Sequence record: NC_054935.2
DNA length: 64,000 bases
From: Escherichia phage YUEEL01
Strand: one strand, 5' to 3'
Shown: piece after piece, positions 1,233-29,545 of the stretch
Layout: each line of letters opens with the position of its first letter
How positions within the stretch are numbered: position 1 is the stretch's first letter
The notes under the pieces: generated by a model
Database searches by the model: none
Seen by the model: the letters and a program-made list of their open reading frames with translations, nothing else
Told to the model about the DNA's origin: nothing
Translations under genes and position numbers: made by a program

Positions 1233-1736
1233 ATGGATTTACAGCTTATTACTACTGAAATGGTCGTTGAAGCATACGGTGATACTACAGATGGGATTTC
1301 TGTATTTAAAGGAAATCGTCGAGTTGGATATATCACCGATCTTAAGAAAGATTTAGCTAAGCAAGTCAAGCGGAAAACGACCATTAAAGAATATCGAAAT
1401 CGTCGTCTTGAGCAAGCCCGTGATATGCTTCCTGATGCGGTTGAGGAGATGAAAGTCTTTTTAGAAAATCAGCTTGCGAAATACGATTGTGAAGTATTCA
1501 TTAATCAGACTCAACCTAATGTTCACATTAATAGCTGTAAATGCTACATCATCGTTAATCCTTTGACGGGAAAACATCGTCTTGGAATTAGTAATCCAAA
1601 TCGTAGTGCATCAGATATGGCAGAAGATGTTGAGGCATGCTTTAAAATTTCTAAATCTCCAGCTGAACATCATATTTTAATTAACGGTCTTTCTCAAGAC
1701 GATATTGTAGAGGTTATTAAAACTTTATGCATGTAA
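1233..1736 (+). CDS. alc: Alc, host transcription shutoff protein
   Basis: 167 aa from second ATG; MDLQLITTEMVVEAYGD... resembles T4 Alc; position immediately downstream of rnlA as in T4. Confidence 0.85.
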   Translation: MDLQLITTEMVVEAYGDTTDGISVFKGNRRVGYITDLKKDLAKQVKRKTTIKEYRNRRLEQARDMLPDAVEEMKVFLENQLAKYDCEVFINQTQPNVHINSCKCYIIVNPLTGKHRLGISNPNRSASDMAEDVEACFKISKSPAEHHILINGLSQDDIVEVIKTLCM

Positions 1737-2080
1737 GTAATTTTACAGCTGGATTGCTATTACTTGTAATAGCATTTGGCGGAACATCTATTATTTTAAA
1801 AAATAAGGTAGAAAGATTAGAAACATCGGTTACTGAAATTACAAAAACAGCCAATGAAAACGCTTTAGCATTAGATAATTTGCGAATTCAGTATAATTAT
1901 ATTGATGCGATGAATAATAAAAATCGTGAGGCAATTGCTGCTATTGAGCGTGAAAATGAAAAACTGCGCAAAGATGCAAAGAAGGCGGATGTGGTGGCTC
2001 ATAAGCCAGGATTGGTTGAAAAACAAATCAACAACTCCTTCAACAAGTTCGCAGAAGACATCCAGGACCTTTCTAAATGA
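1727..2080 (+). CDS. i-spanin-like protein (N-terminal TM helix + coiled coil)
   Basis: 117 aa; hydrophobic segment FTAGLLLLVIAFGGTSIIL then heptad-like charged region; 4-bp overlap with downstream lipoprotein gene; equivalent to the T4 pseT.3/pseT.2 Rz/Rz1-type pair. Confidence 0.7.
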   Translation: MHVSNFTAGLLLLVIAFGGTSIILKNKVERLETSVTEITKTANENALALDNLRIQYNYIDAMNNKNREAIAAIERENEKLRKDAKKADVVAHKPGLVEKQINNSFNKFAEDIQDLSK

Positions 2081-2376
2081 TTAAACTATCAGCAGTAATA
2101 TTATCTATTGGTCTTCTAGTTGGTTGTTCGACAAAGCCTCTAGAAGTAAAGAAAGAAACAGTTCATCCTAATTGGCCTGTGCAAATAAAGTCATATGACG
2201 AAGCTAAACTATCTTGGCAAGTTAAAGTTATTGATGGCAAAGCTTGGGTCGGTATGCCATTTGAAGATTCCCAGGAATTTCGCATTTGGCTTAATGATGT
2301 AAAACGATATGTACATGACCAAAAAACTATGATATGTTATTATCGTCAAGAGCTAAAAGAGGATAAATGTAAATGA
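2077..2376 (+). CDS. o-spanin-like outer-membrane lipoprotein
   Basis: 99 aa; signal peptide MIKLSAVILSIGLLVGC with lipobox LVGC; C-terminal cysteines; translationally coupled to upstream i-spanin. Confidence 0.7.
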   Translation: MIKLSAVILSIGLLVGCSTKPLEVKKETVHPNWPVQIKSYDEAKLSWQVKVIDGKAWVGMPFEDSQEFRIWLNDVKRYVHDQKTMICYYRQELKEDKCK

Positions 2377-2599
2377 TTTCATGGCATCAATTTGAACATC
2401 TCAAAGGATTGATTTATGAATCTGAGATGGCTGCAATGATTTATGGACGCCAGATTCAACGATTAGAATCTTTACCTCCAACTAATGATGTTTTATTAGC
2501 TCAATCACGTGCTAATCTCAAAAATGAATATCAAAATAAGTGGGGCAAAGCATCTAAAGACCTGCATGATTATATTCAATCATTGGTTGAGAAAAATAA

Positions 2600-2603
<4 letters not shown>
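2373..2603 (+). CDS. hypothetical protein (76 aa)
   Basis: ATG-initiated ORF with 4-bp overlap to neighbours; fits T4 pseT-alc small-gene block. Confidence 0.55.
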
Positions 2604-3825
<1,222 letters not shown>

Positions 3826-17981: not shown

Positions 17982-19075
17982 TAAAAAGTCCCCGCATATA
18001 AAGAAGCACGGTTTAACGTGATAATTTCTCTCATAGTAATCTCGAGAGTAAATGTACTAGGGAGATTTGGAGCAATAGCTAATCCGTTAAAGTTACCATT
18101 AGGTGTTTTATCAAATCTGATACTCTGGATTTGACATGGACCGAATATTTCCGTTTTTCCATCAAACTTAGATGTTGCACCAAAGTTTTTCACCATCCAA
18201 ATTGTCGGGTTTGAAACTACAAGAACGTTAGTTAAACTCGATGTCATTTTCTCAAATAACGTCTTATTTTTAACTGCATCTTCTGGAGTTAACGGCTCAA
18301 TAAAAGTAGAACGGTACCACTCATCTAGATATCCTTTTATTTCAGCAGCATATTGAGATTTACCAGTTTCACCGTAAGAAAAATAGTTAAAATACTGATA
18401 GATATTAATAATAGCCATTAAATCTTCTGTTGAGCGCGGAGTCAAATCCCAAGTGAACACTTTAGTTCTATTTTCAGCACCGCCGTACATGCTTCTGGCT
18501 GTCGTATAAATCTGTTCATTATTATCAGCCATTATACCTTGTGTTATACTTTCCAGCGCTCCAAATACTGCTGTTGAAGCCATATTGCTTAGCACACCAG
18601 TAGCAGTACCTCCACCTTTTGTAATAAGACTATCTTGAACATCATTAAATCTATGTGATGACGTATCGACGTCAGATTTAGATCTAGGTAAAAGAATATT
18701 TGCAACAGGAACTTTACTTATTGTTCCTGAATTATTATTTGATATTAGTCCATTTGATAGTTTTGATACTGTATTACTGATAGTGTTTCTGGCTGTACGT
18801 AAAATACTCGAAGATGAAGAAGAGTAGTTAGATCTCATCGTTCTAAGACTTCCAGAATCCCTAGATGACATATTGTATGCAGTAAATAATAATCCATTCT
18901 TATATAGATCTGTTACCTGGAAGTCCCCTGTAGTGTCATTACCACTAGCACGCCCAGTTGGAAACTGGGCTGTGTATGTTTTAGTTCCTACTTCTGATTT
19001 AGTACTCTGTCCGGCTGAAATTGTTTCACCGGACTTTTTAATTAAATCAGCAGTTATTTCTTTAACAATTGCCAT
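17981..19075 (-). CDS. 48: baseplate tail-tube cap gp48
   Basis: 364 aa, length and synteny as T4 gp48. Confidence 0.9.
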   Translation of the reverse strand: MAIVKEITADLIKKSGETISAGQSTKSEVGTKTYTAQFPTGRASGNDTTGDFQVTDLYKNGLLFTAYNMSSRDSGSLRTMRSNYSSSSSSILRTARNTISNTVSKLSNGLISNNNSGTISKVPVANILLPRSKSDVDTSSHRFNDVQDSLITKGGGTATGVLSNMASTAVFGALESITQGIMADNNEQIYTTARSMYGGAENRTKVFTWDLTPRSTEDLMAIINIYQYFNYFSYGETGKSQYAAEIKGYLDEWYRSTFIEPLTPEDAVKNKTLFEKMTSSLTNVLVVSNPTIWMVKNFGATSKFDGKTEIFGPCQIQSIRFDKTPNGNFNGLAIAPNLPSTFTLEITMREIITLNRASLYAGTF

Positions 19076-19083
19076 ATTATTCC

Positions 19084-20856
19084 TTAATTAACTCCCGTCG
19101 CACCAAATACACCAGGAGCAGTCGTGCTCGTTACAGGTGTCATATTATGAACGACAGTATTTTTCTTAATAACATTATTAGTATTATTGATTGAAGGAGA
19201 TGCTTGTTGAACAGGAGCTTGTTGTGCTTTGTTCTTTTCAATCACCTGGACCTGTTTTGCTTCTGGTGATTTAGCAGAAGTTTCAGGTTTTGCTTCAGGT
19301 TGATTTTTCTTGAGCTCTTGATAAGTGGCATCAATTTTAGCAAATCTAGAAGCAAGTTCTTTTTTAACTGCTGGTGAATTATTTAAATCCGGATCATTCA
19401 TTCGTTTTTTAAGGTCTTCATGAGCAGCTTCAATTGATTTAACTGTCGAGTCTTTGCTCATATCAGCTGAATCAGCGTATTTTTCAAAACGAATCATCGC
19501 AGCACGAGCTTCATTAGCTTTCATTAAAGCATTTTTTCTTTCTTCCGGTGAAAGTTGTTTTAATTTTTCTTCTTCTGCTGCACGTTCTTCGTCAGTAGTC
19601 AATGCTTCTTTATTATCTACACCACGAATCCAGTTAGATGCACGAGTTTTCCAGTTCGCAATTTTGTCTAATCCTTTTGCTATTGGGCCAAGATCATCAT
19701 TCATTCGTTTATCTTGATAATTTGCTACTTTTTCTTGGTCTTCTTTATTAAGAGATGCTCCAGTAGAATTTTGGAAATTTTCTAATGCTCTTCCTTCTAC
19801 TTCATCAGCAGTATCCTTCATGCCAGGAATGACTCGAAGAATTGCTGCAGATAATTTAGCCATACCCAATTGAATAAGCTCTCCTAAATTATAAAGAACC
19901 TTTCCAAGCCCTTCTACAATAGCTACCGTCAAACCGCCCCAATCTCCCGCTTCCCAGAACTTTTTAATTTCATCAATAGATTCAAAGATGCTCTGTAATA
20001 AAGGACCCCAAGTTCCGGTTTCGCTTGAAAAAGTTTTAAAATCAGTGCTAAACAAATCCCAGGCTTTTGAAAATTTATCTGACCAATATTTAAAATGAAC
20101 CATCAGTAGGTCTATTCCAATAACAACAGCCATTATTAATGCAACCATTTTAGCAGCTTCAATAGCAGCACTGACAGTATACTTAAATAGCATGCTTGAT
20201 ATTTTATCAGTAATTGAAATGGATTTTTTAAATCCAAAATCAACAGTCTTTGTTAATTTATCTAAAGCTTGAGATAATTTTAAATTAAATGCTTCTTTTT
20301 TCTGTTTTTCTTCCGGTGACTCTCGCTTAGGTTCAACTGGTTGAGGGGCAGGGAAAAAATCAGCGTCAGGATCATTATTAACTGCTTCAGGAGCTGGTAA
20401 TAATGGACCAACAAATTCAGCTGTATCATCCTCAACAACTTTAACGGGAATAGCACTTTCGACTACAGCTAAGCTGGTTCCTGTCTGTTGAATTCCAGCT
20501 GTTTGAATTTTTTGTTCTAGTAAACTCGTTAATTTATCTAATTTACTTCCGAGTGATTCACCGATTTCTTTATTAATATTGTTGCCAATTTCTACAGTTT
20601 CAGCAATTAACTCAGAACCAGCAGTAGTATCACTCACTGCGCTTTCTACATTGTCAATTGCTCCAATTATTTCATTCGATTTTTCTTCAACGGTTTGAGC
20701 TATTAATTCAGAAGCAGCTTGAGCATCATCCAATTTTGTAGAAATGTCATTAAGCCCAGATAAAGTGTTAGAAGCGGATTTAGCCGCTTCCTGAACTGGT
20801 TTATTATCTGAAATAACTTTTCTACGCATCGTTTGCATTTCTTGTGGCTTTTTCAT
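19084..20856 (-). CDS. 29: tail length determinant / tape measure and baseplate hub protein gp29
   Basis: 590 aa, coiled-coil rich, synteny as T4 gp29. Confidence 0.9.
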   Translation of the reverse strand: MKKPQEMQTMRRKVISDNKPVQEAAKSASNTLSGLNDISTKLDDAQAASELIAQTVEEKSNEIIGAIDNVESAVSDTTAGSELIAETVEIGNNINKEIGESLGSKLDKLTSLLEQKIQTAGIQQTGTSLAVVESAIPVKVVEDDTAEFVGPLLPAPEAVNNDPDADFFPAPQPVEPKRESPEEKQKKEAFNLKLSQALDKLTKTVDFGFKKSISITDKISSMLFKYTVSAAIEAAKMVALIMAVVIGIDLLMVHFKYWSDKFSKAWDLFSTDFKTFSSETGTWGPLLQSIFESIDEIKKFWEAGDWGGLTVAIVEGLGKVLYNLGELIQLGMAKLSAAILRVIPGMKDTADEVEGRALENFQNSTGASLNKEDQEKVANYQDKRMNDDLGPIAKGLDKIANWKTRASNWIRGVDNKEALTTDEERAAEEEKLKQLSPEERKNALMKANEARAAMIRFEKYADSADMSKDSTVKSIEAAHEDLKKRMNDPDLNNSPAVKKELASRFAKIDATYQELKKNQPEAKPETSAKSPEAKQVQVIEKNKAQQAPVQQASPSINNTNNVIKKNTVVHNMTPVTSTTAPGVFGATGVN

Positions 20857-25527: not shown

Positions 25528-25543
25528 AAGGGCCGAAGCCCTT
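25528..25543 (-). promoter_or_regulatory. hairpin at uvsW stop / uvsW.1 leader
   Basis: GGGC-TTCG-GCCC (minus strand) overlapping uvsW stop, 12 nt before uvsW.1 ATG. Confidence 0.4.
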
Positions 25544-27053
25544 ATAAATTAACTGTTTTCATTACGTAATTAAATTTTTCATCTGCGTAGCGCTGAATAC
25601 GATCAATGCCGTGTTTTAAAAGATAGTTCAAGTGAACATATTTCTTTTTAGTATTAGCAGATTTTGGCTTGACACCACAGTCATCTATGAGGTCCCAGAC
25701 TGTTGCGATTGTTTTAGAACCATGTTTACGTAATACGCGACCTATTGTTTGCAATACAATAATTTTAGATTTAACACCGTGTGCTAAAACAACGTGATGC
25801 AGATTTTTAACTGAAATACCAGTAGAAAATACACCATAACTAGCTACTATAATTATTCCTTTACCGTTTTCAGCTAAGGTTTTCATTATATTGCGGGTTT
25901 CGGTATCAACTTCCCCTGATACGTAATAAACTTTATCGTATTCATTTTTAATTAAATCGAAAATAGCTTTACCGTGCGATACGTGTTTAAACATGACAAA
26001 AGCGTTTTCATCTTTTTGTGCAAGCTTAATAGCTAATTTAGCGATCCATTTATTTCTTTTACTAAGCCCAGTAATAATTTTTATTTCTTCTTGGTAAGTT
26101 TTTCCCTTTAATTTAGTAGTGAACTCATCGGGATAGCGAAGAAAAATACTATTAATTTTTAACTCAGTTACTTGTCCATCTTCCATTAATTTAGAGGTCG
26201 TTACTGGCTTAAATATTTCACCGAACATTCCAACATACTGCATGATATTGGCTTTGCCATCACGTAATGAACCAGACAAACCGAATTTGAACATGCAGTT
26301 ATTTAAACCTGATATGATAGATGAAATACTTTTTCCTGTAGCAAGATGACATTCATCATTCATCATCATTCCAAACTGTGAGAACCATTCTTTCGGTTGT
26401 TTTACTACAGTTTGCCATGTACCAACAACGACCGGTGCATCATTTTTATATTTATCATCTTTTGATGCTCCACCACCGATTTTCTTTATCATTGCATGAC
26501 TGAATAAACGATAGTCAACAAAGTCATCAGCCATCTGAGTTGTCAGAGCAGTTGTTGGAACAATAATAAGAATTTTGCCTTCATAATTTTCCAAATAATA
26601 CCGAGCAAGCAAAGCTTGAATTAAAGATTTACCTGCGGATGTTGGAAGATTAAGAATTCTACGACGATTAACTAATCCTTCGAACACTGCATCTTTTTGA
26701 TACCAATGCGGTTCAATTCTTTTATTTCCTGAATAGATTTCTAATTTAGAAAGCCATTCATCAAAATCTTTTCTTGATAATTCTTCTTTTTCGTTAATCT
26801 GTGGGTCAATCCAGGCTTTATAGCCAAAGTTATCGCAGAACTTTTTAATTTGCCCGACTAAACCGAATGGAAGAAGGCGATTATAATCTAAAAGACGAAT
26901 TCGTCCATCCCAGTGGCCATATTTGTACTTCGGATTAAAACGATACCCATCAGCTTCAAAGCTAAAGAAATCACGGAGTTCATGAAATGTACTTTCTTCG
27001 CAATCAATTCTCACGTGACTAAAATCATAAAAATGTACTTTAATGTCAGTCAT
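25542..27053 (-). CDS. uvsW: UvsW DNA/RNA helicase (SF2)
   Basis: 503 aa; Walker A LPTSAGKS and DECH box (MMNDECH); N-terminus MTDIKVHFYDFSHVRIDCEE matches T4 UvsW. Confidence 0.93.
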   Translation of the reverse strand: MTDIKVHFYDFSHVRIDCEESTFHELRDFFSFEADGYRFNPKYKYGHWDGRIRLLDYNRLLPFGLVGQIKKFCDNFGYKAWIDPQINEKEELSRKDFDEWLSKLEIYSGNKRIEPHWYQKDAVFEGLVNRRRILNLPTSAGKSLIQALLARYYLENYEGKILIIVPTTALTTQMADDFVDYRLFSHAMIKKIGGGASKDDKYKNDAPVVVGTWQTVVKQPKEWFSQFGMMMNDECHLATGKSISSIISGLNNCMFKFGLSGSLRDGKANIMQYVGMFGEIFKPVTTSKLMEDGQVTELKINSIFLRYPDEFTTKLKGKTYQEEIKIITGLSKRNKWIAKLAIKLAQKDENAFVMFKHVSHGKAIFDLIKNEYDKVYYVSGEVDTETRNIMKTLAENGKGIIIVASYGVFSTGISVKNLHHVVLAHGVKSKIIVLQTIGRVLRKHGSKTIATVWDLIDDCGVKPKSANTKKKYVHLNYLLKHGIDRIQRYADEKFNYVMKTVNL

Positions 27054-27082
27054 GTCTAAATACCATGTAATAAATATATCTA

Positions 27083-27090
27083 TATTTATA
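27083..27090 (-). promoter_or_regulatory. late promoter TATAAATA for uvsW
   Basis: Reverse-complement TATAAATA 30 nt upstream of uvsW ATG. Confidence 0.6.
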
Positions 27091-27103
27091 CTGAGGAAAT
27101 ATT

Positions 27104-27784
27104 ATGATAGATAAAGATTATATTGCAGAGCTGAAGGCTCTTGATGATAATAAAGAAGCTAAAGCTAAATTAGCTGAATATGCTGAACAGTTTGGTATAA
27201 AGGTCAAAAAGAATAAATCTTTTGATAATATCGTTAATGATATTGAAGAAGCTCTCCAGAAGCTCGCTAGTGAACCTATGCCAGAGACTGATGGGTTATC
27301 TATTAAAGACTTAATTGATGCTGCTGATGCCGCAGACGGATTAAAATATGACGATGAAGAAGTCAATCCAGAGGCAGCACTTCTGATTGATTCTCCGGTT
27401 AAATCTGACATTAAAATTGAAGTAGTAGAAACGGATAAAATTCCTGAAAATACCACTGTTTTAATTGAAGATACTCCTTTTGTTGAAGAAAAATTCGAAC
27501 AGGCTGTAGCTGAGATTATTGAATCCGAAAAGCCGTCTGTATTTACTCTTCCGGAAAACTTTAGTCCGAATCTTCAGCTGATTGGAAAAAATCCAGGATT
27601 CTGCACTGTTCCTTGGTGGATTTATCAATGGATTGCTGAAACCCCAGATTGGAAATCTCACCCAACTAGTTTTGAACATGCGTCGGCACACCAAACTTTA
27701 TTTAGCTTAATTTACTACATTAATCGTGACGGATCAGTTCTAATTCGTGAAACACGTAATTCTTCTTTCGTAACATTAAAATAA
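27104..27784 (+). CDS. inh: Inh, inhibitor of prohead protease (by position)
   Basis: 226 aa acidic protein directly upstream of hoc as in T4; assignment by synteny and length only. Confidence 0.6.
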   Translation: MIDKDYIAELKALDDNKEAKAKLAEYAEQFGIKVKKNKSFDNIVNDIEEALQKLASEPMPETDGLSIKDLIDAADAADGLKYDDEEVNPEAALLIDSPVKSDIKIEVVETDKIPENTTVLIEDTPFVEEKFEQAVAEIIESEKPSVFTLPENFSPNLQLIGKNPGFCTVPWWIYQWIAETPDWKSHPTSFEHASAHQTLFSLIYYINRDGSVLIRETRNSSFVTLK

Positions 27785-27793
27785 GGATAACTT

Positions 27794-29500
27794 ATGGCTT
27801 TTACAGTTGATATAACTCCTAAAACACCTACTGGAGTTATAGATCAGACTCAGCAGTTTACTGCTACACCCAGTGGTCAAACTGGAGATGGACCTATTAC
27901 ATATGCTTGGACTGTAGACGACGCTCCACAGGAAGAAACGTCAGCAACTTTTAGTTATGTACTAAAAGTACCTGCCGGTCAAAAGACTATTAAAGTAGTT
28001 GCAACCAATCAAGTTGCAGAATCTGAACCTGAAACAGCAGAAATTAGTACAACTATCACAGTTCAAAATAAGACACAAACAACTACTTTAGCTGTAACTC
28101 CTGGTAGCCCTGATGCTGGAGTGATTGGAACTCCAATTGAATTTACCGCTGCCTTAGCTTCACAGCCATCAGGTGCAAACGCTACGTATCAATGGCACGT
28201 TGACGGTTCTCCTGTAGACGAAGCAACTGACGCTACATTCAATTACACTCCTGACACAAGCGGAGTTAAAAAAATCAAGTGTGTAGCTCAAGTAACTGCG
28301 GCAGATTATGATGCACTAAGCGTTACTTCTAATGAAGTATCATTGACTGTTAATAAAAAGACGCAGACGACTACCTTGGCAGTAACTCCTGATAGTCCTC
28401 CAGCTGGAGTGATTGGAACAGCCGTTGAATTTACTGCTGCCTTAGCTTCTCAACCTGATGGGGCATCTGCTACGTATCAGTGGTATGTAGATGATTCTCA
28501 AATTGGTGAAGCGACTTCTGCTACATTTAGCTATACTCCAACTACAAGTGGAGTAAAAAGAATTAAATGCGTAGCGCAAGTAACAGCAACAGATTATGAC
28601 GCAAAAACAGTTACTTCTAATGAAGTATCATTAACAGTTAATAAGAAGACACAGACAACTACGTTAGCCGTAACTCCTGCTAATCCTGCTGCCGGAGTAA
28701 TTGGAACCCCAGTTCAATTTACTGCTGCCTTGGATTCACAGCCACCAGGAGCGTCTGCTACGTATCAGTGGTATGTTGACGGTTCTCTGGTCGATGGAGA
28801 AACTACTACTACATTTAACTATACTCCTACCACAGTTGGAGCTAAAACAGTTAAGTGTGTAGCGCAAGTAACTGCAGAAAATTACAATGAAAAGGAAGTT
28901 ACTTCTAATGAAGTATCATTGACTGTTAATAAGAAAACAATGAATCCACAGGTTACATTGACTCCTCCTTCTATTAACGTTCAGCAAGATGCTTCGGCTA
29001 CATTTACGGCTAATGTTACGGGTGCTCCAGAAGAAGCACAAATTACTTACTCATGGAAGAAAGATTCTTCTCCTGTAGAAGGGTCAACTAACGTATATAC
29101 TGTCGATACCTCATCTGTTGGAAGTCAAACTATTGAAGTTACTGCTGTCGTTACTGCAACTGATTACGATAGCAAAACTATTACAGCAGAAGGTCAAGTT
29201 CAGGTAACTGATAAAGTTGCTCCAGAACCAGAAGGTGAATTGCCTTATGTTCATCCTCTTCCACATCGTACTTCAGCTTATATCTGGTGCGGTTGGTGGG
29301 TTATGGATGAAATCCAAAAAATGACCGAAGAAGGTAAAGATTGGAAAACTGAAGATCCAGACAGTAAATACTACCTGCATCGTTACACTCTTCAGAAGAT
29401 GATGAAAGACTATCCAGAAGTTGATGTTCAAGAATCACGCAATGGATACATCATTCATAAAACTGCTTTAGAAACTGGTATCATCTATACCTATCCATAA
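27794..29500 (+). CDS. hoc: Hoc, highly immunogenic outer capsid protein (expanded Ig-domain form)
   Basis: 568 aa; five Ig-like modules, three of them near-identical 96-aa tandem units, plus C-terminal capsid-binding region (WCGWWVMDEIQ...); synteny inh-hoc-rnlB. Confidence 0.88.
   Translation: MAFTVDITPKTPTGVIDQTQQFTATPSGQTGDGPITYAWTVDDAPQEETSATFSYVLKVPAGQKTIKVVATNQVAESEPETAEISTTITVQNKTQTTTLAVTPGSPDAGVIGTPIEFTAALASQPSGANATYQWHVDGSPVDEATDATFNYTPDTSGVKKIKCVAQVTAADYDALSVTSNEVSLTVNKKTQTTTLAVTPDSPPAGVIGTAVEFTAALASQPDGASATYQWYVDDSQIGEATSATFSYTPTTSGVKRIKCVAQVTATDYDAKTVTSNEVSLTVNKKTQTTTLAVTPANPAAGVIGTPVQFTAALDSQPPGASATYQWYVDGSLVDGETTTTFNYTPTTVGAKTVKCVAQVTAENYNEKEVTSNEVSLTVNKKTMNPQVTLTPPSINVQQDASATFTANVTGAPEEAQITYSWKKDSSPVEGSTNVYTVDTSSVGSQTIEVTAVVTATDYDSKTITAEGQVQVTDKVAPEPEGELPYVHPLPHRTSAYIWCGWWVMDEIQKMTEEGKDWKTEDPDSKYYLHRYTLQKMMKDYPEVDVQESRNGYIIHKTALETGIIYTYP
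28070..28933 (+). repeat. three tandem ~288-bp repeats inside hoc (Ig-like domain units)
   Basis: Units at 28070-28357, 28358-28645, 28646-28933 each encode KTQTTTLAVTP...TSNEVSLTVNK (96 aa) with high mutual identity. Confidence 0.85.
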
Positions 29501-29518
29501 TCATAATCATAATCATAA
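29496..29518 (+). repeat. (CATAAT)n microsatellite, about 3.8 units
   Basis: CATAATCATAATCATAATCATAA overlapping hoc stop codon and leading into terminator hairpin. Confidence 0.7.
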
Positions 29519-29545
29519 GGGGCTTCGGCCCCTTTCTTCATTTTG
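29517..29545 (+). terminator. intrinsic terminator downstream of hoc
   Basis: AAGGGGC-TTCG-GCCCCTT followed by TCTTCATTTT. Confidence 0.7.

Follow-up and report, generated by a model that had tools for sequence, protein, structure and literature searches.

Three diverged domain-2 units in the hoc gene of Escherichia phage YUEEL01, and a copy-number series among its relatives

The hoc locus and the domains of its product

The window is the 64,000-nt stretch of Escherichia phage YUEEL01 (NC_054935.2) that we analysed. It includes the gene hoc, preceded by inh and followed by a short repeat and a hairpin:

27104-27784, + strand: inh, inhibitor of prohead protease, the upstream neighbour of hoc (ORF, with synteny as in T4); its stop codon is 27782-27784
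27783-27787, + strand: Shine-Dalgarno sequence AAGGA, 6 nt 5' of the hoc ATG (read from the sequence)
27794-29500, + strand: hoc, an intact ORF of 568 aa
29496-29518, + strand: CATAAT hexamer microsatellite across the hoc stop codon (Tandem Repeats Finder)
29517-29534, + strand: intrinsic-terminator-like hairpin AAGGGGCTTCGGCCCCTT and then a T-rich tail, directly 3' of hoc (read from the sequence)

The hoc product matches T4 Hoc (5vf3_Z) with a phmmer E-value of 1.9e-207, and the Pfam families PKD, PKD_4, Ig_3, Ig_2 and I-set match it above their cut-offs. The locus order in the window is uvsW - inh - hoc - 24.3 - 24.2 - rnlB - gp24/gp23, and ECML-123-2, slur03, HP3.1 and the four relatives L026-L029 share it, as supported by annotation or Pfam matches. 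The upstream gene is annotated as inh in ECML-123-2 and slur03, and Pfam Phage_Inh_N and Phage_Inh_C match the equivalent gene. The protein has an N-terminal linear string of Ig-like domains (Pfam; AlphaFold2 model) and, at its C-terminus, a capsid-binding domain that corresponds by homology to T4 Hoc residues ~281-376. The YUEEL01 gene is a natural and intact hoc allele of T4 type, encoding a head decoration protein. Hoc of this type sits as a single monomer in the middle of each gp23 hexamer. It is non-essential in T4 (PMC10580926). A sigma-70 promoter scan gives scores at or below chance, and the exact T4 late promoter TATAAATA is absent from the + strand upstream of inh/hoc. By eye, there is a 7/8 match to the T4 late promoter near 27069.

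The coding region divides into six domains:

27794-28069, + strand: Ig-like domain 1, aa 1-92, the orthologue of domain 1 in T4 Hoc (alignment; AlphaFold2 strands 4-91)
28070-28357, + strand: unit R1, aa 93-188, Ig domain of the domain-2 (D2) type (unit alignment and typing)
28358-28645, + strand: unit R2, aa 189-284, D2-type Ig domain (divergence from T4 D2)
28646-28933, + strand: unit R3, aa 285-380, D2-type Ig domain (unit alignment and typing)
28934-29221, + strand: T4-type domain 3, aa 381-476 (T4 alignment)
29222-29497, + strand: C-terminal capsid-binding domain, aa 477-568 (T4 Hoc residues 285-376 are almost identical)

T4 Hoc has 376 aa (PDB 5vf3 chain Z) and three Ig-like domains, while the window Hoc has five followed by the capsid-binding domain; the lengths of 568 and 376 aa given in the initial annotation are both right. 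The two proteins align over window residues 1-190 and 369-568 with a clean 192-aa insertion between, T4 Hoc being the shorter, as had been proposed. The source of the extra length had been misread: it was put down to three units plus a diverged fourth, while in the alignment the extra 192 aa are two more copies of T4 domain 2, and the remaining D2 unit and domain 3 belong to the normal T4 protein. The supposed fourth unit is T4's normal domain 3. It is near-identical to T4 residues 189-284, it is matched by Pfam Ig_3 and I-set over residues 385-469, and it shares ~33-37% identity (gapped; 31-36 of 96 residues) with R1-R3, to which it is no closer than domain 1. Domain 3 (28934-29221) is an ancient paralogue outside the variable array.

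Outside the array, the window Hoc is close to that of T4 (376 aa; PDB 5vf3, 8t1x). It occupies the same locus between inh and 24.3/24.2/rnlB, its domains 1 and 3 and its capsid-binding domain are near-identical to their T4 counterparts, and its domain-2 units have the T4 fold; it differs in having three diverged domain-2 units where T4 has one. The dS of domain 1 to T4 is 0.32. Window residues 369-568 match T4 177-376 almost unchanged, and the capsid-binding domain (dN 0.009 and dN/dS 0.04 to T4) is nearly invariant among 24 aligned homologues. The AlphaFold2 model shows five all-beta domains with pLDDT ~80-92 and then an alpha/beta C-terminus, and each repeat-unit boundary falls on a predicted domain boundary. 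When the full model was compared with the PDB by Foldseek, only generic multi-domain Ig/MG-type proteins (complement C3, MDGA1 and Dscam) came back, with rmsd of 13-72 angstroms. The model resembles flexible beads on a string, so these matches carry no information, and the Hoc assignment rests on the sequence match to T4 Hoc.

Divergence of the repeat units

Tandem Repeats Finder reports one array in hoc (28070-28939, period 288, 3.0 copies, score 1005, 77% matches). The initial annotation had placed three head-to-tail 288-bp units at 28070-28933, and these boundaries (28070/28358/28646/28934, 96 aa per unit) are exact by both Tandem Repeats Finder and unit alignment. It had also called the units near-identical, which they are not. 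Any two of R1-R3 share only 76-79% of their nucleotides and 74-81% of their residues, with longest identical stretches of 23-35 nt that end at unit nt 275-287. The pairwise dS of R1-R3 is 0.54-1.14, exceeding the window-to-T4 backbone dS of 0.24-0.32, with a dN/dS of 0.11-0.30. Relative to T4 D2, dS is 0.80 for R1, 0.25 for R2 and 0.55 for R3. The value for R2 equals that of the backbone, so R2 is by divergence the orthologue of T4 domain 2; by the same measure, R1 and R3 diverged from T4 D2 longer ago than R2. The units vary mainly in their loops (entropy 0.62 vs 0.26 in strands). On these rates, we take the units to be old paralogues, selectively maintained under purifying selection, and not fresh duplicates.

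Close matches to all three units occur in other Hocs. R1 is identical to the sole D2 of three 376-aa proteins (P0053, P0056 and P0066). The single unit of a one-copy gene (L028) is 100% DNA-identical to R3, and unit 4 of slur03 and FJ1 is 98.6% identical to it. Unit 3 of the FJ1 gene, which has four copies, matches R2 at 96.5% identity.

Copy number and recombination among relatives

In Tequatrovirus, hoc comes in sizes of 1131, 1419, 1707 and 1995 bp, which correspond to 1-4 units; across 676 phage records, the 1131, 1419 and 1707 bp classes were found. Sixty records sampled at even intervals include 28 one-copy, 21 two-copy, 1 three-copy and 1 four-copy hoc genes, with one copy the commonest class. 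About four in ten sampled relatives have four Ig domains, and a few percent have five or six. The two-copy genes encode a 472-aa Hoc, as in HP3/HP3.1, ime09 and PP01, and the four-copy genes (slur03/08/14, FJ1, Sfk20) a 664-aa Hoc. Approximately 11 GenBank Tequatrovirus records have a 1707-bp hoc like that of the window (carriers are ECML-123-2, OMNI12, KMB26, EC101, ESh16/26/34/36, UGKSEcP1/2 and T4_ev151), and that of ECML-123-2 is 99.8% identical over the whole gene. The 568-aa Hoc proteins fall into 7-8 clusters from metagenome and isolate assemblies. The 472- and 664-aa Hocs and the other 568-aa forms share the array with the window, with the same unit types in the same order; the 472- and 664-aa proteins differ from the window Hoc only in the number of units and in which ones are present. 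IMG/VR viral contigs yielded 21 loci; few of these were close, and no three-unit hoc was among them. A query of a large protein database with the four-copy slur03 Hoc gave no form with at least five copies and no new multi-copy architecture, but it missed slur03 itself, so this negative carries little weight.

Very close relatives differ in unit number. In a protein sample consisting of the best 120 clusters of a non-exhaustive search (one that missed the 664-aa slur03 protein), 15 of 98 protein pairs with backbones at least 98% identical do so. Genomes ~98.5% identical over 24 kb carry a 472-aa or a 568-aa Hoc, and the backbones of one-, two- and three-unit genes can be apart by 0-9 nt. All copy-number classes coexist in phages of similar hosts, and some relatives have split hoc genes.

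Several of these genes look like recombinants of the window units. A two-copy allele (P0014) lacks R2 and otherwise differs from the window gene at 11 of 1419 nt; its unit 2 starts as R2 and continues as R3 from a point between unit nt 13 and 17. The one-copy genes L027, L028 and L029, whose backbones have 0-2 differences from the window, carry R1-to-R3 hybrid units with switch points before nt 9 (L027), at nt 10-17 (L028) and at nt 25-34 (L029); in L027, L029 and P0014 the hybrid signal consists of 1-3 informative sites at the unit 5' end. The HP3.1 hoc has gene-conversion patches. The window R2 may itself have been joined from units 2 and 3 of the four-copy genes, a signal that is suggestive but patchy against slur03 and amounts to two sites against FJ1; it would be consistent with a deletion model, and is not proof of one. 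Relatives switch between unit types at unit nt 1-35, directly 3' of the unit junction, which is the most conserved DNA between units:

28322-28362, + strand: R1/R2 junction, the conserved end of a unit, ...VTSNEVSLTVNK, and the first bases of the following one (nucleotide alignment)
28610-28650, + strand: R2/R3 junction, the same conserved sequence (nucleotide alignment)

Out-of-register recombination is likely to use this junction for pairing. Higher synonymous conservation there was considered as a sign of homogenisation and set aside, as the drop in pS is only modest relative to the rest of the unit. One- and two-copy genes sit on backbones more than 99% identical to that of the window gene and differ in their hybrid switch points; therefore, in-register recombination has been recurrent.

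The unit order is strict. Among 47 multi-copy arrays in 18 architectures, no unit type occurs twice and the order is never violated, R1-type units being always first and R3-type units always last. In all three four-copy genes, units 1, 3 and 4 match the window R1, R2 and R3. Position-specific selection could mimic a conserved order, for example if the first unit packs against domain 1; against this, R1-, T4- and R3-type units each also occur as a sole unit.

The best overall explanation, to which we give a probability of about 75%, is a natural hoc allele with an old ordered D2 array whose copy number changes by recombination. Under this explanation, hoc arrays would be order-preserving subsets of a longer ancestral array of R1-type, T4-type, R2-type and R3-type units. 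The number of units would change by in-register homologous recombination between units, with exchanges resolving within ~35 nt after a ~40-nt junction that is nearly identical between units. The exchanges seem to be mainly deletions, plus gene-conversion patches, a direction that we read from the hybrid units and the conserved order. The initial annotation had proposed that the array can expand and contract by recombination. The 1-4-unit genes and the hybrids on backbones more than 99% identical bear this out, while a recent, slippage-prone expansion is not supported in view of the unit-to-unit dS and the fixed order. It had also described hoc as enlarged. The gene product is indeed 192 aa longer than that of T4 by in-frame whole-domain units, but an array kept from a longer ancestor, with T4 reduced, appears to fit better.

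A recent in-situ tandem duplication would instead make hoc a VNTR-like contingency locus, in which slippage or unequal crossover acts on unstable, near-identical units. The head-to-tail, in-frame layout with an exact 288-bp period is in keeping with it, as are the copy-number differences, which hoc shares with VNTR loci in that they occur among near-identical genomes. Adjacent units are not near-identical, however: they have 21-24% nucleotide difference and short identical runs, their dS exceeds that of the backbone to T4, and the same types recur in distant backbones in constant order and never twice in one gene. As no type is repeated and the order is fixed, an old ordered array trimmed by deletions is favoured over recent duplication. 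A true slippage repeat does lie next door, the CATAAT hexamer, with 1-3 perfect copies among relatives and no change to the protein. Recent duplication is already largely refuted by the divergence data, and we consider it very improbable. Still less credible, to the point of being negligible, is an assembly artefact in which one domain-2 copy was mis-assembled into three, a concern raised by the initial annotation. Repeats are a classic source of assembly errors, and the exact 568-aa window protein was absent from the gene index in which it was looked up. Against this, the ~11 GenBank genomes are independent and have the 1707-bp hoc in a single aligned piece, the 568-aa clusters come from both metagenomes and isolates, and short reads can tell apart without ambiguity units that are 76-79% identical. 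The reading frame is unbroken and has its Shine-Dalgarno sequence and terminator.

The preferred reading, deletion from an old array, also has to be weighed against gain, in which T4's one copy is ancestral and the window gene was enlarged by stacking the single-copy D2 alleles of co-infecting phages out of register. In its favour, R1-, R3- and T4-type units are the sole units of 376-aa Hocs, some of them 100% identical to the window R1 or R3, one-copy genes are the commonest class, and recombination between T4-type phages in mixed infections is very active (PMC9271167). But one-copy parents do not have the junction homology for out-of-register pairing, as the end of domain 1 is unlike a unit end, and unequal exchange between arrays should now and then give repeated types or order violations, of which the 18 architectures have none. 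The one-copy R1/R3 hybrids on the window's backbone, with their three switch points, are the footprint expected of deletion from an R1...R3 array. We regard gain as unlikely. A different question is whether copy number matters to the phage at all. The units could be neutral spacers, Hoc being dispensable, with copy number drifting without a fitness effect, and the non-essentiality of Hoc in T4, the coexistence of copy-number classes in phages from similar hosts and the split hoc genes of some relatives are compatible with that. On the other side, purifying selection acts on all units, hundreds of records have unbroken reading frames, and most variation lies in loops. Together, these three observations indicate that all units are being kept as folded, exposed domains, though they do not prove selection on copy number itself. 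We see the neutral reading as a real possibility, but a doubtful one.

Fibre reach, glycan binding and related systems

The T4 Hoc fibre is 180 angstroms long and has four domains (PMC10385173). Each extra unit would lengthen the capsid fibre by one Ig domain, and we infer an increase from ~18 nm in T4 to ~27 nm here, with domain 1 held farther from the capsid. The initial annotation expected both reach and valency to be altered. The effect on reach is a reasonable expectation; whether the extra units would also act as added glycan-binding sites of higher valency is uncertain, because the published domain mapping conflicts. Domain 2 of PNJ-9 Hoc binds MUC2 (PMC11853027), while the isolated domain 2 of PNJ-6 Hoc (376 aa, the closest tested homologue) did not, and the mucin-binding domain has been mapped to domain 1, 2 or 3 depending on the phage. 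An S183/L184/T185 motif is reported for PNJ-9 domain 2 (PMC11853027). All three window units have this motif, at aa 183-185, 279-281 and 375-377.

The bacteriophage-adherence-to-mucus model is reportedly due to Barr et al. 2013, and Ig-like domains on phage structural proteins are said to be described by Fraser et al. 2006 in J Mol Biol. The window Hoc resembles the domains of that model in having exposed accessory capsid Ig domains, proposed as weak glycan binders subject to gain, loss and exchange; mucin-domain mapping is inconsistent across phages. The model has been tested for Hoc in PMC9271167 and PMC11150434. The number of Ig domains is known to vary in Hoc homologues (PMC10385173, PMC11853027, PMC13435897): Serratia phage Muldoon Hoc (1174 aa) has 10, PG7 has 1, PNJ-9 has 2 and is without domain 3, and Klebsiella phage PMBT63 has 4. 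These proteins share with the window Hoc a conserved capsid-binding domain and a variable Ig-like string, but they are distant homologues in which different domains were added or lost, whereas here we have a within-genus series of one domain in near-identical genes. Bacterial adhesins also have variable tandem Ig-like repeats, as in GBS Rib/alpha C and the B-repeats of staphylococcal SasG/Aap. These too are whole-domain in-frame units whose number sets the reach of the N-terminal tip and is changed by recombination; unlike the hoc units, which are 21-24% diverged and occur once per type, their repeats are usually near-identical in DNA and change at high frequency. DGRs are not known from T4-type genomes. 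A preprint reports DGR-targeted, hyper-variable "Hoc-like" proteins in other phages, which are unrelated to the window Hoc.

A bolder proposal is that the three-Ig Hoc of T4 is a reduced form of an ancestral, ordered array of at least four domain-2 paralogues, and that the number and choice of units form a selected, fast-changing, recombination-driven "length dial". We offer this tentatively and think it on the whole rather unlikely. If true, the dial would act on 155 capsid fibres, tuning their reach and/or glycan-binding valency to mucosal or surface environments. Hoc is the main handle for phage mucus adherence and for T4 display and vaccine engineering, and the 1-4-copy series on nearly identical backbones is a ready-made experiment on fibre length versus domain valency, with mucus retention, aggregation, immunogenicity and clearance as readouts that it touches. 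The statement that T4 Hoc has three Ig domains is not representative of the genus Tequatrovirus.

Our literature search found no paper on the domain-2 copy-number series of hoc. Variable Ig-domain number in Hoc is already published, and the long hoc form is already catalogued. As both the sequence class and the general principle are public, the gain is incremental; the window hoc is ordinary natural variation, not a new kind of feature. Long hoc forms are often unnamed or missed in genome annotation.

Architecture of hoc and its repeat units

The window carries an intact hoc gene, and cutting the encoded protein at residue 93 defines three 96-aa pieces, the units R1, R2 and R3:

27794..29500, + strand: intact hoc ORF, 568 aa (ORF scan)
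28070-28357, + strand: R1
28358-28645, + strand: R2
28646-28933, + strand: R3
6 nt 5' of the start codon, + strand: Shine-Dalgarno AAGGA (sequence reading)
29517-29534: GC-rich hairpin terminator 3' of hoc (sequence/terminator reading)

A sequence search against the PDB identifies T4 Hoc (5vf3 chain Z, 376 aa, E = 1.9e-207), and together with the ORF this bears out the initial annotation of a 568-aa Hoc, against 376 aa in T4. Residues 1-190 of T4 Hoc align with window residues 1-190, and 177-376 with 369-568; the two blocks therefore delimit a clean 192-aa insertion, which amounts to T4 domain 2 being present two more times. Pfam places PKD and Ig-type domains across the N-terminal 470 residues. 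The AlphaFold2 model (mean pLDDT 81) has five all-beta domains (1-91, 93-187, 189-283, 285-379, 381-471) and then a less confidently predicted alpha/beta C-terminal domain, so that one repeat unit corresponds to one structural domain.

With Tandem Repeats Finder there is one array (28070-28939, period 288, 3.0 copies, 77% matches, score 1005), and our split coincides exactly with the three 288-bp units initially placed at 28070-28933. The array is real and rightly placed, but it was partly mis-described. The units had been called near-identical, while pairwise they share 76-79% identity at the DNA level and 74-81% at the protein level; identical stretches are at most 23-35 nt long, at the unit 3' end. 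A supposed diverged fourth unit (28934-29221) is the ordinary T4 domain 3, which agrees with R1-R3 at 31-36 of 96 residues and is not nearer to them than domain 1 is. Between R1-R3, dS is 0.54-1.14 and dN/dS 0.11-0.30 (Nei-Gojobori), with mostly synonymous differences. The units are under purifying selection and vary mainly in predicted loops, as expected of exposed, folded domains. Compared with T4, the window has a dS of 0.24-0.32 in the backbone (domain 1, domain 3 and the C-terminal domain), and the dS to T4 domain 2 is 0.25 for R2, 0.55 for R3 and 0.80 for R1. Since its value matches the backbone, R2 is the orthologue of T4 domain 2; R1 and R3 are older lineages.

Occurrence in other phages

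A megablast of the window hoc against 50,697 phage records finds matches in 676. The top 11 (ECML-123-2, OMNI12, KMB26, EC101, ESh16/34/36/26, UGKSEcP1/2 and T4_ev151) contain the full 1707 bp in one piece at 94.4-99.8% identity, which rules out the assembly artefact that had been considered possible. The 568-aa Hoc is already in GenBank many times and is not unique to the window. Four units, for a Hoc of 664 aa, are present in slur03/08/14, vB_EcoM_FJ1 and Shigella phage Sfk20. The best 120 clusters of a large protein database include 78 of 376 aa, 29 of 472 aa, 7 of 568 aa and 1 of 570 aa.

Span of the hoc locus in 60 records, an evenly spaced sample of the matching records
~1131 bp (T4 class): 1 unit, 28/60
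~1419 bp: 2 units, 21/60
1707 bp: 3 units, 1/60
1995 bp (slur03): 4 units, 1/60
Partial or other genera: units not given, 9/60

Several records have irregularities of their own. The closest match, ECML-123-2 (L001, OL631480.1, 99.8%), has no annotated CDS over its intact 1707-bp hoc at 1501-3207, an annotation gap. The 32-kb record MG010123.1, 'Staphylococcus phage SAJK-IND' (hit H33), includes a T4-like two-unit hoc at 18685-20103 with 90.7% identity to the window, and is probably mislabelled or contaminated. In FriedrichMiescher (MZ501066.1, H123) and T2 (NC_054931.1, H77) hoc is annotated as two CDSs; such entries read 'Hoc part 1 / part 2', or are two 'Hoc-like head decoration' entries spanning 1117 bp, and suggest that some relatives have a hoc that is frameshifted or inactivated. 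T4_ev151 (L030, LR597660.1, 1201-2907) has a three-unit, 1707-bp hoc whose backbone differs from that of T4 at 99/843 nt, so despite its name it is not T4-like in this region. Protein P0123 (567 aa, 24 member sequences), almost the length of the window Hoc, shares only 58% identity with slur03 Hoc and may be an independent five-Ig form from a more distant lineage.

Recombination between units and direction of change

Of 98 protein pairs that share at least 98% identity outside the repeats, 15 differ in unit number. The gene of the 472-aa protein P0014 (metagenome contig L026) equals the window hoc minus R2 except at 11/1419 nt; in its unit 2, the bases at unit nt 6 and 12 are those of R2, and from nt 18 on they are those of R3. 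Three loci (L027, L028, L029) hold one-unit genes that encode the protein of Yersinia phage fPS-65; they differ from the window at 1-2 sites in domain 1 and at none in domain 3 and the C-terminal domain (567 bp). Their sole unit is R3 preceded by a stretch of R1, with a switch that lies before nt 9 in L027, within nt 10-17 in L028 and within nt 25-34 in L029. The two units of HP3.1 are both mosaic: an R2 patch interrupts R1 at nt 243-252, and two more interrupt R3, at nt 63-108 and 276-279. These comparisons show recurrent, in-register recombination between hoc units, in agreement with the initial proposal that recombination can change repeat number. The exchanges resolve immediately 3' of a conserved junction, the unit end GTTACTTCTAATGAAGTATCATT.AC.GTTAATAA. 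plus AAGAC.

As for direction, 121 distinct units cluster into 11 types. A recent duplication predicts adjacent twin units, yet no type is repeated within any of 47 multi-copy arrays (18 different architectures). Frequent unequal gains should occasionally break the order of units, but it is constant throughout these arrays, {R1-family} > T4-type > R2-type > R3-type, 5' to 3', with the R1-family first in 38/38 and R3 last in 11/11. Three independent four-unit genes all read R1-like, T4-like, R2-like, R3-like, and window R1, R2 and R3 are 95.8%, 96.5% and 98.6% identical to FJ1 units 1, 3 and 4. Unrepeated types in constant order are the expected outcome if an old, ordered array has lost units again and again by deletion. 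We therefore favour the reading, drawn from a non-exhaustive sample with few informative sites per switch point, that, of at least four ancestral units, the window keeps three, the single unit of T4 being a reduced state.

That Hoc homologues vary in their number of Ig domains is known from the literature: Fokine et al. 2023 described 1 to 10 Ig-like domains (PMC10385173), and the Klebsiella phage PMBT63 paper (2026) an additional Ig-like domain and a number widely variable among T4-like phages (PMC13435897). In the literature searched we found no description of a within-genus domain-2 series, constant unit order or hybrid junctions, a modest new evolutionary angle.

Fibre, binding sites and surroundings

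According to PMC10385173, T4 Hoc forms a fibre of ~180 angstroms in which a capsid-binding domain carries three Ig-like domains, with 155 copies per head; two added domains would lengthen it by roughly 9 nm. In PNJ-9 Hoc, which differs in that domain 3 is missing, the domain 2 residues S183/L184/T185 are reported to bind MUC2 (PMC11853027). They fall in the invariant NEVSLTVNK motif closing every unit, so the window Hoc has three copies, candidate sites by sequence. Isolated domain 2 of PNJ-6 Hoc (376 aa) did not bind MUC2. Glycan binding of T4 Hoc is changed by domain-3 mutation (PMC9271167).

The gene starts 9 nt past the upstream stop codon (sequence reading), and the ORF scan finds no overlapping ORF of >=60 aa on the opposite strand across hoc. 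Its GC content is 40.7%, against 35.8% for the whole window. The order uvsW, inh, hoc, two small ORFs, RNA ligase 2 and gp24/gp23 homologues is that of annotated relatives, and the Tequatrovirus phages HP3, HP3.1, EC101 and ECML-123-2 are 98.0-98.6% identical to the window across 24 kb. Next to L026, L027 and L028, the window (25542-27104) lacks homing-endonuclease-like ORFs that these close relatives have alongside hoc and its neighbours: a SegE-like GIY-YIG ORF between uvsW and inh (L027, L028) and a NUMOD3 ORF beyond uvsW (L026, L028). In mixed infections, elements of this kind promote local gene conversion and, speculatively, could aid hoc allele shuffling.

A CATAAT hexamer microsatellite (29496-29518) overlaps the hoc stop codon, with three full copies in the window and L027, two in ECML-123-2, HP3.1, L026, L028 and L029, and one in T4, slur03, FJ1, Sfk20 and T4_ev151; copy number shifts the distance from stop to hairpin (29517-29534) in 6-nt steps and leaves the protein unaffected. 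A window-wide scan (1-64000) finds no tRNA genes. For the T4 late-promoter motif TATAAATA the window has 22 occurrences where 9.7 would be expected; most are on the minus strand, ahead of the structural genes.
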